Assembly: GCA_903839725.1 (NCBI GenBank)
Contig: CAIMDG010000001.1
Span: 3,558-67,557, forward strand
DNA length: 64,000 bases
DNA from: an uncultured bacterium
Lineage (GTDB): Bacteria; Patescibacteriota; Minisyncoccia; Phycocordibacterales; PALSA-1337
Direction of reading: 5' to 3'
This document shows positions 3,548 through 29,709 of the stretch, piece after piece (position 1 is the stretch's first letter; each line of letters begins with the position of its first letter). The translations under genes and the position numbers were made by a program. The notes under the pieces are model-generated. The model did no database searches. It was not told the DNA's origin and worked only from the letters and a program-made list of their open reading frames with translations.

Positions 3548-3964
3548 CTAGGCTACGTTTTGGGGTGCGAGGTTCTCCTCGATCACCTCATGAAATAAGG
3601 TGCGGAATGTTTCCAGGACGCGGTTGAATGAGACCTGTTGTTCATTCGCGAACTCACTCAATTGTCCGCGGAATTGCGTATTGTGACGCTGGTTCTGAAC
3701 AAGGGTTTTGCACAGTAACCATGCGATTTCTCCAGCCCGCTTTTCTTTGAAGCTGTTATGCAGATTGTTGTTCAATACCGCATTGTGAAAACGGTGGATC
3801 TCCCCGTGGGGAATCCCAGTCTTTTCCTCAAGCGTCTTACAGGCACGTCTTGATTTTTCGCTGTTGGGATTCTTGAAGGTGATGCGAATCTTGAGGCTGA
3901 TAATGATTACAGCCATTTGGCGCAACTCCTCGTCTGTCATGGTTCTTTTCATAATTTCTTTCAA
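3548..3964 (-). CDS. Hypothetical protein (138 aa)
   Basis: Intact ORF in an AT-rich segment between pheT and gyrB. No recognisable motif. Confidence 0.4.
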   Translation of the reverse strand: MKEIMKRTMTDEELRQMAVIIISLKIRITFKNPNSEKSRRACKTLEEKTGIPHGEIHRFHNAVLNNNLHNSFKEKRAGEIAWLLCKTLVQNQRHNTQFRGQLSEFANEQQVSFNRVLETFRTLFHEVIEENLAPQNVA

Positions 3965-4071
3965 AAGCCAAGCCTGTGCCTGGCGAACAATTTTTTACAT
4001 ATATAACACACGAATTGTGCTATTGTCAATGTATATAAAAACACCACTTCCTGGGGAAGTGGTTGAGTGAA

Positions 4072-4437
4072 TTATTTGCATTTGTAAGTGACACGAATCT
4101 CGCGAACACTACCCGTGTCATCTTTGAGAAAGAAAAGTTCTTGTTTTCTTCCTTTCTGATCTGTGGCCGGGACTCGAGATGAGACTGTTGTGCCGAAAGC
4201 GACAATAATTTCTTCTGAATATAGTGTGATGCGCCGAGACACATGATGCTTCGGAATCTTTTTCTTTGATACGCAAGGAATCAAATTGATTGTTAACCAT
4301 TCAGTTTTTGGTGAAGGTTGTCCAGAAATGTCTTTTTCGAGAAATAATAGTCCGTGGACTTGCCATCGTTTTCTCGTGTCTTGAAAATGTGCCCGACAGT
4401 CAGAACTGATAAGTACCCTAACTTCCCCAAGGTTCAT
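4072..4437 (-). CDS. Hypothetical protein (121 aa)
   Basis: Intact ORF co-oriented with 3548-3964. No recognisable motif. Confidence 0.35.
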   Translation of the reverse strand: MNLGEVRVLISSDCRAHFQDTRKRWQVHGLLFLEKDISGQPSPKTEWLTINLIPCVSKKKIPKHHVSRRITLYSEEIIVAFGTTVSSRVPATDQKGRKQELFFLKDDTGSVREIRVTYKCK

Positions 4438-4632: not shown

Positions 4633-6756
4633 ATGTCTGAAAAACCCAAGCCAACTAAAGCAAAAAAAGAGAATAGTTACAGCGCCGATTCGATTCAGGT
4701 CCTTGAAGGGTTGGAACCAGTTCGCAAGCGCCCCGGTATGTACATTGGTACGACTGGACCAGACGGCTTGCATCATTTGATCACAGAAATTTTCGATAAC
4801 TCACGTGATGAAGCGATGGGTGGTTTTGCCAATGATATTGAAATTGCGCTTCTTCCTGGAAATAGAGTTCGTGTTGTCGACAATGGCCGTGGTATCCCTG
4901 TCGATATCCAAAAGCAGACCAAGGTATCAGCTCTCGAAACAATCATGACCGTTCTTCACGCCGGAGGTAAGTTTGGTGGTGAAGATAGTGGATACAAAGT
5001 TTCAGGAGGTCTTCACGGTGTGGGTGCTTCAGTGGTGAACGCTCTTTCCGTATATACACAAGTTATCGTACACAAAGATGGTGGGGTATACATGCAGGAA
5101 TATTCTCAGGGCAAACGCAAGGCTGCGGTGAAGAAGATTGGCTCTTCAAAACTCCATGGAACTATCGTTACATTTGAACCAGATCCCATTATTTTCAAGG
5201 AAGGCGTGATATTCGATTGGAATCGTGTCGTAAATCACATGCGTCAACAGGCATACCTCGTTCCAAGTTTGCGCATTTCAGTGATCGATGCACGCAATCA
5301 AATCTCTGGTTTTGGCTCAGACAATGAAATTTTCTATCTTCGTGAGACTGGAGTTGATGCACCATCATTCACATTCTATTTTGAAGGAGGTCTTTCATCG
5401 CTTGTTCGATTTACGAACCAGTTGATCAAGCCAATTCACAAAAATATTTTTTATGTCGAGAAGAAGGTTGAAGGCGTTGAGTCTGTAGAAGTTGCTTTGC
5501 AGTATGCTGACGACGTGTCTGGACGTATTCTTGGCTTTGCGAACAATATCAATACACCAGAAGGAGGTACTCATGTGACCGGATTCAAGACCGCACTTAC
5601 ACGTACACTCAATACCTATGCCAAGAATAACAATATGGCCAAAGGTGACGGCGATACATTCACTGGAGATGATGCTCTCGAAGGATTGACCGCTGTTGTT
5701 TCGGTGAAGCTCCGCGAAATACAATTCGAAGGTCAAACCAAGGCAAAACTTGGTTCGATGGAAGCGCAGGGTGCTACCGCCAATGTATTTGGTGAAGCAT
5801 TTGCAATGTTCCTTGAAGAGAATCCTGATGATGCACGCAGTATCATCAACAAGGTTATTCTTGCCATGAAGGCTCGTAAGGCTGCGAAGGCTGCAAAGGA
5901 CTCTGTGCTTCGTAAGGGTGCACTCGAAGGTATGACACTCCCAGGCAAGCTTGCTGACTGTCAGTCAAATGATCCGAAAGAATCAGAACTCTTCATTGTG
6001 GAGGGAGATTCTGCGGGAGGTACTGCCAAGCAAGGTCGCGATCGCAAATTCCAAGCTATTCTCCCACTTCGTGGAAAGATTTTGAATATTGAACGTGCTC
6101 GTCTCGATCGTATGCTTGGTTCAGAGCAGATCAAGAACCTCGTGCTCGCATTCGGTACAGCTATTGGTGATACTTTTGATATTACCAATCTTCGCTATCA
6201 CAAGATTATTCTTGCAACAGATGCCGACGTTGACGGTGCTCACATTCGTACACTTATTTTAACTCTGTTATTTAGATATTTCCGCCCACTCGTTGATGCT
6301 GGTCATATATTTATTGCACAGCCACCATTGTATAAGGTGAAGCGTGGTAAAGAGATTCTTTATTTCTATAGTGATGAAGAAAAGTTTAAAGCTCTTGGTA
6401 AAGATGTTGACGAGGCTGCTATGGCGGAAGCTGAGAATGCAGGAATGGAAGATGATAAGGATCGCATGCTCGATGCTGCAGGTGCTGATAAAAATGTTAA
6501 GGCCGAAGAAACTGAGGAGGTCAATACCAAGAAGGCTCCAAAGATTTCAATTCAACGCTATAAAGGTCTTGGAGAAATGAACCATGATGAGTTGTGGGAA
6601 ACTACTATGGATCCGATGAGACGTATTCTTCGTCAGGTGACAGTAGATGATGCCATTGAAGCTGATAAGGTCTTCGATATGCTCATGGGTGATGATGTGC
6701 CTGCAAGAAAGTCATTTATTCAGTCGAACGCTAAGTTGGCGAATCTCGACATTTAG
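4633..6756 (+). CDS. gyrB: DNA gyrase subunit B
   Basis: LEGLEPVRKRPGMYIGTT, the GHKL ATPase region, EGDSAGG, and the QRYKGLGEMN Toprim/tail motifs are present. Confidence 0.9.
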   Translation: MSEKPKPTKAKKENSYSADSIQVLEGLEPVRKRPGMYIGTTGPDGLHHLITEIFDNSRDEAMGGFANDIEIALLPGNRVRVVDNGRGIPVDIQKQTKVSALETIMTVLHAGGKFGGEDSGYKVSGGLHGVGASVVNALSVYTQVIVHKDGGVYMQEYSQGKRKAAVKKIGSSKLHGTIVTFEPDPIIFKEGVIFDWNRVVNHMRQQAYLVPSLRISVIDARNQISGFGSDNEIFYLRETGVDAPSFTFYFEGGLSSLVRFTNQLIKPIHKNIFYVEKKVEGVESVEVALQYADDVSGRILGFANNINTPEGGTHVTGFKTALTRTLNTYAKNNNMAKGDGDTFTGDDALEGLTAVVSVKLREIQFEGQTKAKLGSMEAQGATANVFGEAFAMFLEENPDDARSIINKVILAMKARKAAKAAKDSVLRKGALEGMTLPGKLADCQSNDPKESELFIVEGDSAGGTAKQGRDRKFQAILPLRGKILNIERARLDRMLGSEQIKNLVLAFGTAIGDTFDITNLRYHKIILATDADVDGAHIRTLILTLLFRYFRPLVDAGHIFIAQPPLYKVKRGKEILYFYSDEEKFKALGKDVDEAAMAEAENAGMEDDKDRMLDAAGADKNVKAEETEEVNTKKAPKISIQRYKGLGEMNHDELWETTMDPMRRILRQVTVDDAIEADKVFDMLMGDDVPARKSFIQSNAKLANLDI

Positions 6757-6782
6757 TCCACTGGTTTTGTACAATAGAAGCG

Positions 6783-7260
6783 ATGCAAATACGCAAATGC
6801 ATGCGAATGACGCGAATAAACGCATCCTTTTATTATGGTTCATCAAGAATCAAAGGTTATTTATCCAGAACTCTCCTATGTTATTACGGGGGTTTGTTTT
6901 GATGTACATAATCAAATAGGAAGATTTGCAAAAGAAAAACACTATGCAGATTTGCTTGAGGATCAATTAATAGAAAGAAAAATAATATATAGTAGAGAAC
7001 ACATTATTCCTAATACAGGCGACAGAATCGATTTTCTTATTGATGAGAAGATTATTGTAGAAATAAAAGCAAAGACACTGATAGTAAAACAAGACTATTA
7101 TCAAACTTAAAGATATTTACATGCTACTAACAAGAAATTAGGTTTATTGGTCAATTTCCGTAGTCGTTATTTGAAACCTATAAGAGTAATTAATGCCGAT
7201 ATACACTAAATAAGGATGCGACGTATTCGCGTCATTCGCAGGCATTTGCGTATTTGCATC
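6783..7260. repeat. Cassette bounded by 46-47 bp imperfect inverted repeats (6783-6828 and 7214-7260) enclosing the GxxExxY gene
   Basis: Left arm is GATGCAAATACGCAAATGCATGCGAATGACGCGAATAAACGCATCC. The reverse complement of the right arm is GATGCAAATACGCAAATGCCTGCGAATGACGCGAATACGTCGCATCC, giving ~41/46 identity. Confidence 0.8.
6835..7203 (+). pseudogene. GxxExxY-family (PD-(D/E)XK-like) protein gene interrupted by an in-frame TAA at ~7108-7110
   Basis: LSYVITGVCFDVHNQIGRFAKEKHY...RIDFLIDEKIIVEIKAKTL...QDYYQT*RYLHATNKKLGLLVNFRSRYLKPIRVINAD. The family-typical C-terminus (YLKAT..LGLLINF...RV.N) continues in the same frame after the stop. Confidence 0.6.
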
Positions 7261-7261
7261 G

Positions 7262-7726
7262 TTATACTGTCTTCACTTTCAACCTTGCCTGCTTCTTCTT
7301 ATCCAACTTAGGAAGTTTCAAAATAAGTAACCCATGCTTCTCGACAGCCTCAGCTTCATCGACATCTATCTCTTCAGGGAGCTGAATAGAACGAGAGAAT
7401 GAACCCCAGTAGAGCTCACGGACGTAGTAGTCTTCTTCTTTGACACTGCGCTCTTCTTCACGTTTACCATTGATGGTGACCATGTCGCGGGTGATAGAAA
7501 TATCGAGGTCTTCAGGGCGTACGCCAGCTATCATACTCTTGATGATGATCATGTCACTTGTCTGGTAGATATCAACAGTGAGTTCGGCATCCTTATCACT
7601 TTCTTCTTCTATCCACGAAACTGCTTCCTTGTCAGAAGATTTTTTTGAAAGTTTTGTTTCACCTTCCTCATTCATGCGAACTGTTCCTGTTAAGCGTTCA
7701 AAAAAGGTTCGTGTATCTTTTGCCAT
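7262..7726 (-). CDS. Hsp20/alpha-crystallin small heat-shock protein
   Basis: The alpha-crystallin domain ITRDMVTINGKREEE...YYVRELYWGSFSRSIQLPEEID...EKHGLLILKLPK is present. Confidence 0.85.
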   Translation of the reverse strand: MAKDTRTFFERLTGTVRMNEEGETKLSKKSSDKEAVSWIEEESDKDAELTVDIYQTSDMIIIKSMIAGVRPEDLDISITRDMVTINGKREEERSVKEEDYYVRELYWGSFSRSIQLPEEIDVDEAEAVEKHGLLILKLPKLDKKKQARLKVKTV

Positions 7727-21810: not shown

Positions 21811-21925
21811 GGAGGAGAAGTATGAAGGTATGAAGGAATTAATGTATGAAGGTATGTGGGTATAAAAGTATAAATGTACTACCGTGTATACGGACATACT
21901 TTCATACCTTCATACTTTCATTCCT
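21811..21925. repeat. Short direct and inverted repeats of TATGAAGG / CCTTCATA upstream of ftsA
   Basis: gtatgaaggtatgaaggaattaatgtatgaaggtatg ... catacctt catactttcattcctt. Several copies in both orientations in the ftsA leader. Confidence 0.5.
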
Positions 21926-22333
21926 TTATACTTTAAATTTCTTTCTCACTTCTACTTCTATACTCTCCATTATAGCGCTATGGTCGTGTCCTTTCAAATG
22001 AACACAACCGTGGATAAAGAGAAAAGGAAAGAAATTTTCATATGATCGATCAAATTTCTTTGCTTCTTCCTTTGTTTCTTTGGGAGATATGTATATTTCT
22101 CCTTCGGTTTCTGAAAGAGGGAAACTTAGAATATCAGTTGGAACTTCTTTGTTTCGGTATTGTGTGTTGAGTTTCTGTATATGTGCAGAAGTAGTAATGA
22201 TGACATTCAAGACATAGTCTTTACCAAGAACTTCATCTTTAATAGCCTCAAATGCTACATGAGGTATTTTCTCTTTTGTTTCGTTGGTAAGGGTGAAGTT
22301 GGACATGGATATATTGTATAGGGAAGGATGCAA
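21926..22333 (-). CDS. ybeY: Endoribonuclease YbeY (rRNA maturation factor)
   Basis: FIHGCVHLKGHDHS matches the H-x-x-x-H-x-x-x-x-x-H zinc motif. 135 aa. Confidence 0.85.
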   Translation of the reverse strand: MHPSLYNISMSNFTLTNETKEKIPHVAFEAIKDEVLGKDYVLNVIITTSAHIQKLNTQYRNKEVPTDILSFPLSETEGEIYISPKETKEEAKKFDRSYENFFPFLFIHGCVHLKGHDHSAIMESIEVEVRKKFKV

Positions 22334-24660: not shown

Positions 24661-24866
24661 ACAAAACGCGCAGGAGGGGTGTGTACTCATTTTTCTCCCA
24701 TAGGTTAGAGACACTTACATTACACAGCGTACCCCAATGTTTACAACCTATGGGAGAAAAATGAGTACACACCCCTCCTGCGCGTTTTGTGCAGCATCTC
24801 AAATATGTAATCTTCATTAAAATTTGATTCTTTTTTCATCACATCTTCATTTCAGTTTGATATGGT
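24661..24866. repeat. Palindromic hairpin element copy 2 (24661-24790; loop inverted relative to copies 1 and 3) plus ~75-nt conserved leader (24791-24866) upstream of the pilB-like gene
   Basis: Arms acaaaacgcgcaggaggggtgtgtactcatttttctcccataggtt / revcomp. Loop agagacacttacattacacagcgtaccccaatgtttac is the reverse complement of the copy-3 loop. The leader tgtgcagcatctcaaatatgtaatcttcattaaaatttgattcttttttcatcacatcttcatttcag is ~90% identical to 29600-29680. Confidence 0.85.
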
Positions 24867-29475: not shown

Positions 29476-29709
29476 ACGAAACGCGCAGGAGGGGTGTGTA
29501 CTCATTTTCTGTACAAGTTTGTAAACACTGCGGTACGCTGAGTAATGTAAGTGTCTCTAAACTTGTACAGAAAATGAGTACACACCCCTCCTGAGCGTTT
29601 TGTGCACAATCTCAAATATGTAATCTTCATCAAAATTTGATTCTTTTTTCATTACATCTTCATTTCAGCTTGATACGATTGTTGTATTAGTAATGTAATT
29701 ATTTTTTGT
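29476..29709. repeat. Palindromic hairpin element copy 3 (29476-29603) plus conserved leader (29604-~29690) upstream of the major pilin gene
   Basis: Arms acgaaacgcgcaggaggggtgtgtactcattttctgtacaagttt / revcomp (outer ends imperfect). Loop gtaaacactgcggtacgctgagtaatgtaagtgtctct. The leader matches 24791-24866. Confidence 0.85.

Follow-up and report, generated by a model that had tools for sequence, protein, structure and literature searches.

In this study, we analysed a 64-kb stretch of DNA from an uncultured bacterium (hereafter the window) and found, between gyrB and hsp20, a cassette of about 480 bases (window 6781-7261) in which long inverted repeats enclose a GxxExxY nuclease gene broken by a stop codon. 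We think it probable that this is a degenerating copy of a class of selfish or mobile nuclease cassettes that resemble intervening sequences (IVSs), are bounded by inverted repeats and have arms that act as DNA. The unit of this class is one GxxExxY nuclease gene of ~124 amino acids (aa) within 40-50-bp terminal inverted repeats, which are made of tandem units of 8-10 nucleotides (nt). The class is widespread, and the unit of arm, open reading frame (ORF) and arm is what is duplicated; at the gyrB/hsp20 junction of related Patescibacteria it is present, absent or flipped. Most copies have a conserved ORF and some a decaying one, and the unit is compositionally foreign.

The inverted-repeat cassette and its family

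The survey comprised 109 distinct GxxExxY genes of Patescibacteria and Bacteroidota with both flanks present. Inverted repeats well above those of shuffled sequences flank 94 of these genes, with a median paired length of 40 nt, and were found around 10 out of 222 control ORFs of the same loci. The arms consist of tandem units spaced 8-10 nt apart, and these have a fixed polarity: whichever strand is considered, the 5′ arm reads ...CGAAT/CTAAT/CAAAT, and AAT is more frequent there than ATT in 80 cassettes, with 3 showing the opposite. GC content is lower in the ORF than in its flanks at 85 of 86 loci (32% vs 43%), and the cassettes are about 10-15 GC points more AT-rich than their surroundings; the interior of the window cassette has 28.6% GC, compared with 43-44% for the adjoining genes. 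Two cassettes of one metagenome-assembled genome (L051 and L060) are 85% identical over the whole length between the outer ends of their arms and unalignable beyond, and their arms differ by indels of whole units. As the homology stops at the outer arm ends, the duplicated unit is arm plus ORF plus arm.

The same architecture was found around a second kind of gene. Four-helix-bundle genes (TIGR02436, 99 bits) on the same contigs are likewise enclosed by tandem-unit inverted repeats, and they adjoin GxxExxY cassettes in short arrays (L058, L064 and L122/124/125). Arrays of two or three cassettes, each with its own arms, lie at L064:1030-3560, L122:100-2400, L053:1840-3420 and L058:1879-3400. 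Conservation across cassettes concerns the design and not a recognition sequence. The four-helix-bundle family was originally discovered in 23S rRNA IVSs. An inverted-repeat architecture common to the whole GxxExxY family and to these four-helix-bundle 'IVS protein' genes goes beyond what the preliminary description of this DNA, made from the sequence alone, had contained.

The two arms of a cassette evolve in concert and are kept alike as their sequence drifts. Across six orthologues at the gyrB/hsp20 junction, 94% of arm cells are paired, and in 12 pairs both sides have changed; this pairing was reached by none of 500 shuffles and collapsed in slid controls. Mismatches between arms comprise 108 G-U, 133 A-C and 370 transversions, with no wobble bias. 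The absence of a G-U preference speaks for arms that are homogenised as DNA, by gene conversion from one to the other, rather than for selection on an RNA helix, for which the mismatch spectrum gives no support. Gene conversion between the arms would be the same process that inverts the interior.

The mismatch spectrum also bears on the main rival explanation, in which the cassette is an IVS-like element at the RNA level: the arms would form a double-stranded RNA (dsRNA) stem in read-through transcripts, RNase III would cut it and thereby release or insulate the ORF RNA, and the DNA events would be by-products. The predicted stem is very stable (-142.6 kcal/mol for the 519-nt segment of the window, z = -7.8 against shuffles), and its size and energy match those of the Coxiella IVS. 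The start codon lies 6 nt past the arm, or within the arm in 134-aa homologues, so that translation could be gated by the pairing. Cassettes and their neighbours point the same way in 64 cases and do not in 3, so both arms would usually be in one transcript, and the arm sequence is idiosyncratic yet keeps its complementarity, as for recognition of a structure. However, G-U is not favoured over A-C, transversions make up most of the mismatches, and no Rfam family matched the segment. Although the co-orientation keeps this RNase III explanation alive, we consider it unlikely.

Several other GxxExxY copies have decayed. The copy in L054 has a stop at Q90, that in L117 at position 96 and that in L094 at K78; L128-L130 have lost parts of the interior by deletion, and in L131, L133 and L075 only fragments are left. 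With the window's own stop included there are four nonsense mutations, three of which lie in a Gln-rich QTQRYLQ stretch.

Variants of the arrangement were also seen. Three loci from IMG/VR (L147:1915-2421, L148:1807-2397 and L150:1825-2490) have extra arms, in the order arm, complementary arm, ORF and complementary arm, and in L150 an empty arm-loop-arm hairpin directly follows a filled cassette. In L027:3386-4143 and L030:3387-4623, the right arm of the GxxExxY cassette pairs also with a third arm 0.7-1.2 kb downstream, and the ORF that these pairings enclose is unrelated and has 223 or 333 aa.

The gyrB/hsp20 junction in relatives

The window is part of a Patescibacteria genome (Paceibacteria/Taylorbacteria-like) of freshwater metagenomes. 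Homologues were sought among 5.8 billion proteins, and five of the closest (P0001-P0003, P0005 and P0076) were traced to their loci; all five are intact and encoded at the gyrB/hsp20 junction. Intact orthologues, all with arms, lie between gyrB and hsp20 in L012, L014-16, L135 and L137/138. In L017/L136, whose gyrB is 90% identical in aa, the arms occupy their usual positions and the interior with the ORF lies on the opposite strand; this is the product expected of recombination between the arms. The cassette is thus present or absent at one defined site, which is filled in the window (WIN), L012, L014, L017, L135 and L137 and empty in the nearest relatives, namely L139-L142, the P0124 contig and L145 (Table 1). 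No arms are present at any of these empty junctions.

The empty sites of L139 and L141 hold a short bidirectional intrinsic terminator, AAAAAATGCCCCtagaGGGCATTTTTT, of the form AAAAAATGCCCC(n)GGGCATTTTT, which is unlike the arms. The preliminary description had offered two readings of the locus, namely a terminator palindrome with a gene inserted in its loop, the arms being the split terminator, or a small mobile cassette with terminal inverted repeats, and it had proposed the junction in relatives as a check. That comparison yielded filled, flipped and empty alleles. Because relatives without the cassette also lack the arms, the arms come and go with the ORF and are not a split terminator; the first reading therefore falls, and the armless empty sites, together with the L051/L060 boundaries at the arm ends, speak for the second.

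The junction also allows a simpler explanation to be weighed, in which the ORF is an ordinary resident host gene, the arms are a bidirectional terminator or 3′ stabiliser between gyrB and hsp20, and the gene was later lost by mutation. The cassette-bearing alleles do lack the intrinsic terminator of the empty alleles, the arms abut both stop codons, and cassette divergence roughly parallels host divergence (protein identities of 69-83% for the cassette and of 71-88% for hsp20). On the other hand, the long stem has no U-tract and no terminator was called for it, many unrelated loci carry the arm-ORF-arm unit, most often where the flanking genes are co-oriented, and the cassette is duplicated as a unit, forms arrays and is more AT-rich than its flanks at all but one of the 86 loci. 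An ordinary host gene is accordingly quite improbable in our judgement, although the stem, even without a U-tract, may serve gyrB and hsp20 as a substitute 3′ structure.

The cassette is old at this junction and not a recent arrival; in the simplest history it has long resided here and has been lost several times. Repeated site-specific gain at the junction may have contributed. For a recent import by recombination from a divergent donor no evidence was seen: the identity of L139 to the window beside the cassette (88-94%) is no lower than elsewhere (about 90%). A possible match of the L139 empty site to the outer flanks of the window cassette (24/29 by eye) was not reproduced in L141 and was not relied on.

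The junction is variable generally. In L143 (L143:3459-3961) it holds about 500 nt of unrelated content, with a hairpin that has 37-nt arms and with small membrane-like ORFs. On the other side of gyrB, between it and pheT, the minus strand has two small ORFs (138 and 121 aa) at about window 3548-4437, where L139/L141 have only about 110-170 nt that cannot be aligned; this is another indel beside gyrB.

The window copy and its stop codon

In the window, gyrB and hsp20 converge across a spacing of 505 nt that holds the inverted repeat (Table 1). The core arms (6781-6818 and 7224-7261) are 38 nt long and 97% complementary; pairing reaches about 6828/7214 with a 1-2-nt indel (arms of about 46-48 nt) and extends more weakly to 6774/7266. 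With up to 3 mismatches allowed, the arm pattern occurs at just these two places in the window, where the chance expectation is 0. No T-run lies beside the long stem, and the terminator scan called just a minor internal hairpin; the cassette stem lacks the combination of a GC-rich stem and a U-tract on each strand that defines an intrinsic terminator. A promoter-like site, TCGACA-18-TACAAT, precedes the left arm, but such sites are not above chance in the region (3 found vs 3.3 expected).

Table 1. Features of the gyrB/hsp20 locus in the window and of the empty junctions in relatives
Feature	Position	Strand	Remarks
gyrB (707 aa)	4633-6756	+	ORF call; Pfam HATPase_c/DNA_gyraseB/Toprim on identical protein; stop TAG 6754-6756
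Promoter-like site TCGACA-18-TACAAT (10/12)	6746-6775	+	just 5′ of left arm; candidate only
Left (5′) arm	6781-6828	+	tandem units, listed singly below
Left-arm unit GATGCAAAT	6782-6790		
Left-arm unit ACGCAAAT	6791-6798		
Left-arm unit GCATGCGAAT	6799-6808		
Left-arm unit GACGCGAAT	6809-6817		
Left-arm sequence after these units, AAACGCATCC			
GxxExxY PD-(D/E)XK nuclease gene, N-terminal 91 codons	6835-7110	+	D66 and E76-x-K78 kept
Premature TAA	7108-7110	+	codon 92, nearly invariant Gln (Q92), within QxxxY helix
C-terminal remnant, 32 in-frame codons and original stop	7111-7209	+	original stop TAA 7207-7209; untranslated
Right (3′) arm	7214-7261	+	directly adjoins hsp20 stop codon
hsp20 (154 aa)	7262-7726	-	downstream convergent neighbour; stop TAA 7262-7264 on minus strand
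Empty junction, L139/L140			gyrB 98.4% aa and about 90% nt identical to window; hsp20-gyrB gap 61 nt
Empty junction, P0124 contig			hsp20 89% aa identical; gap 58 nt
Empty junction, L141/L142			gyrB 97% aa identical; gap 45 nt
Empty junction, L145	L145:3471-3480		hsp20 78% aa identical; gap 8 nt; no terminator

The ORF belongs to the GxxExxY family. It scores 73.5 bits against PF13366 (PDDEXK_3; cutoff 22) and, against the TIGR04256 'GxxExxY protein' model (cutoff 35), 70 bits when read through the stop and 37.4 bits as truncated. It has F in place of the first G of the motif (GRFAKEKHY), and thus fits the family model but not the literal GxxExxY. Residues E34, D66, E76 and K78 are all present; among 118 homologues the first three are invariant and K78 is nearly so, and the homologue alignment gives the motif order D...ExK...QxxxY. 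From these motifs the protein is predicted to be a minimal Cas4/RecB-like PD-(D/E)XK nuclease. No solved structure was matched by sequence search. The best neighbours in a fold search were the Cas4 structures 4ic1 and 4r5q, both weak (E ~1e-3 or higher, template modelling (TM) score ~0.5), and further weak neighbours were tRNA-splicing endonucleases, the domain of the homing endonuclease I-Bth0305I and Hjc. Defence-system libraries returned weak matches to Cas4b hidden Markov models (HMMs) alone, PHROGs returned two families of unknown function, and carriage by phages, judged from IMG/VR, was limited to 4 distant copies. The PF13366 family is listed as of unknown function in the Pfam survey (PMC3424549). 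The top match of the representative search, P0241, is a repetitive surface protein and was discarded as a false positive.

The window copy does not have the full-length frame of the family (~124 aa), and the window gene is a pseudogene through a CAA-to-TAA nonsense mutation. Gln occupies the stop position in all 10 closest homologues, which are intact at 124 aa, and is nearly invariant among the 118; orthologues at the same locus carry CAA or CAG there, and a single C-to-T change therefore explains the TAA. In the model of the nearest intact homologue (predicted local distance difference test (pLDDT) 89), the stop falls in the helix 85-98 that bears QxxxY, so that truncation takes away half of this helix and the last two beta-strands of the sheet. 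On this model the fold of the truncated product could not be complete, though D66 and E76-x-K78 stay. The 32 codons after the stop are still identical to P0001, the closest intact homologue, at 29 positions, and the mutation is therefore recent. A population variant, G to T at window 7019, was seen in L002 (one sample); it changes the nearly invariant Gly62 to Val, which fits relaxed constraint.

The same intact C-terminal codons might be taken to mean that the TAA is read through or recoded and that a full-length nuclease is made, and the stops of L054 (position 90) and L117 (position 96) lie within the same 7-codon stretch. Yet 33 of the 54 ORFs of at least 120 aa in the window, hsp20 among them, end in TAA, which makes it the most frequent stop codon there, and recoding is very unlikely for this reason. 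No suppressor tRNA is present among the 3 tRNAs of the window, intact orthologues use CAA or CAG at this codon, and in other copies the stops hit Gln codons, where nonsense arises most easily in one step; one further copy is stopped at K78 instead, and some have deletions.

An artefact, be it a miscalled base or a chimera joined at the inverted repeat, has next to no probability. Short-read contigs do often break within the inverted repeat (L009, L010, L004 and L011), but such breaks are the usual effect of a 38-nt inverted repeat on k-mer graphs. The 91-aa product with 100%-identical DNA recurs in L001, L003 and L005-L008, and L002 has it with one difference. At least seven assemblies, from different samples and assemblers, agree across the stop, and L005 and L006 span the locus from arm to arm with the TAA; a sequencing error was rejected on these grounds.

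The preliminary description was in part borne out. It had seen 46-bp imperfect arms at 6783-6828 and 7214-7260, which match ours, around a GxxExxY (PD-(D/E)XK-like) ORF between convergent gyrB and hsp20, with a family-typical C-terminus continuing in frame after a TAA at about 7108; these features were all recovered, and its cassette and its pseudogene stand. Of its other options, the split terminator, the sequencing error and the recoding, which it had itself called much less likely, were not upheld.

Other palindromic elements occur in the window. An ORF-less hairpin of about 110 nt at 21816-21935, with arms of 8-nt GTATGAAG units, lies between two minus-strand genes; it resembles the cassette arms in style and may be an 'empty' cassette. 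A palindromic element of about 130 bp with the core CGCAGGAGGGGTGTGTACTCATTTT ... AAAATGAGTACACACCCCTCCTGCG is present in three copies (661-786, 24661-24790 and 29476-29603), each just upstream of a plus-strand gene and without an Rfam match at the gathering threshold.

Proposed behaviour of the cassette and comparison with known systems

Taking these results together, we propose that the cassette is selfish or mobile and has the same architecture as the ORF-bearing IVSs of 23S rRNA. Its arms would recombine with each other, which would homogenise them and enable the interior to invert; they would also delimit the segment that is copied or lost, and probably form a hairpin or cruciform that marks the unit. 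The nuclease may promote spread of the cassette or its retention at the site, in the manner of a homing endonuclease or by structure-specific action. A life cycle of fixation, degeneration and loss would follow, with the window copy in the degeneration phase, and the hairpin that it retains may now be a 3′ end structure between two convergent genes.

Several observations weigh against this proposal. The sole cassette ORF encodes the PD-(D/E)XK protein, and no transposase-type enzyme was found; the structural matches of this predicted nuclease are weak. No direct repeat that would mark a target site was seen at 10 well-defined ends, where the flanks tend to lengthen the inverted repeat by 1-5 nt. 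The arms vary in sequence between cassettes, even inside one array, and being cassette-specific they argue against one sequence-specific recombinase. Neither the arms nor the gene has a second copy in the 64-kb window. The 64 to 3 co-orientation with neighbouring genes suggests read-through expression of the ORF and perhaps a benefit to the host. At the gyrB/hsp20 junction, cassette divergence follows host divergence, so movement is rare, and vertical descent with losses could explain the pattern; in the WIN/L139/L141 clade either gain or loss may have occurred, and filled alleles are without the terminator of the empty ones.

For the source genome, the meaning is modest, the window copy being an ordinary dead copy, a dead nuclease gene in a probably selfish cassette. 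More widely, a very common 'hypothetical' family comes packaged between tandem-unit inverted repeats and is gained, lost, flipped and duplicated in such units, and the genes for proteins of the rRNA intervening-sequence family have the same architecture. Where IVSs come from and whether they move have been open questions since about 1990, and a 2016 study of the Coxiella IVS (PMC4990558) still describes them as unclear. The free-living copies, with sites that are filled in some close relatives and empty in others, offer a concrete system in which to test these questions, and the architecture gives annotators a rule for spotting cassettes and their pseudogenes. No description of an inverted-repeat architecture for GxxExxY genes was found in the open-access literature searched, though curators may know of it informally. 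A class of IVS-like, inverted-repeat-bounded ORF elements outside rRNA that carry a nuclease appears to be new in this form. More tentatively, GxxExxY and four-helix-bundle cassettes might together form one widespread, as yet undescribed class of mobile mini-elements that occurs in Patescibacteria, Bacteroidota and other groups; the 23S IVSs would be copies that landed in rRNA. In this class, the paired arms (as cruciform, hairpin or dsRNA) would be recognised by their structure for movement or retention, and not by an end sequence common to all, and the PD-(D/E)XK protein would be the acting nuclease.

Each of the known systems shares part of this design. The cassette protein has the motif order D...ExK...QxxxY of the minimal Cas4/RecB nucleases, along with weak best folds (4ic1 and 4r5q) and weak Cas4b HMM matches, but it is half the size and has no Fe-S cysteine cluster and no CRISPR context. 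Integron cassettes are likewise single, apparently promoterless ORFs that share the orientation of their neighbours and in some cases form tandem arrays, with one imperfect inverted repeat per unit that varies in sequence and keeps its shape. In the present cassettes, however, the repeat halves flank the ORF, whereas integron cassettes have one attC hairpin at the 3′ end, and no integrase or attI was noticed nearby, although no systematic search was made.

In miniature inverted-repeat transposable elements (MITEs), foldback elements and insertion sequences (ISs), terminal inverted repeats also bound the duplicated unit; foldback elements have arms of tandem sub-repeats as well, and ORF-less hairpins in the same style are found at window 21816-21935 and in L150. 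The differences are that no DDE, serine, tyrosine or HUH transposase is encoded, that the arm sequence is not common among cassettes, and that no target-site duplication was seen at the ends examined. Free-standing and intron-borne homing endonuclease genes, among them those of the PD-(D/E)XK type (I-Ssp6803I and I-Bth0305I), resemble the cassette in being small, AT-rich nuclease genes that are present or absent at a precise site and pass through a cycle of fixation, degeneration and loss, and the catalytic domain of I-Bth0305I is a weak fold neighbour. They differ in that the cassette has long flanking inverted repeats and no intron or intein, and in that four-helix-bundle cassettes have the same architecture without encoding a nuclease.

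A close resemblance is to the ORF-bearing 23S rRNA IVSs of Leptospira and Coxiella burnetii, whose ORF is of the S23p/four-helix-bundle family. Our cassette lies between protein genes (gyrB and hsp20) rather than in a 23S rRNA helix, carries a PD-(D/E)XK nuclease (PF13366) rather than S23p, and has arm mismatches without an RNA-type bias. No rRNA was found in the window and no rRNA motifs in 146 related loci; the cassettes are therefore free-living counterparts of IVSs and not IVSs in the strict sense. In Coxiella, the IVS is 428 nt long, with a 28-bp terminal stem, a folding energy of -143 kcal/mol and GACAGAT heptamers before a decaying ORF of ~120 aa; it is excised by RNase III, and its origin and function were called unclear by the authors (PMC4990558). 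Like the cassette, these IVSs are units of 430-500 nt with terminal inverted repeats and a long stem, in which short tandem repeats at the 5′ side (the heptamers in Coxiella, 8-10-nt ...CGAAT units in the cassette) are directly followed by one decay-prone ORF of ~120 aa with a weak or absent Shine-Dalgarno sequence, and their distribution is patchy and they have long been suspected of being mobile (PMC4990558).

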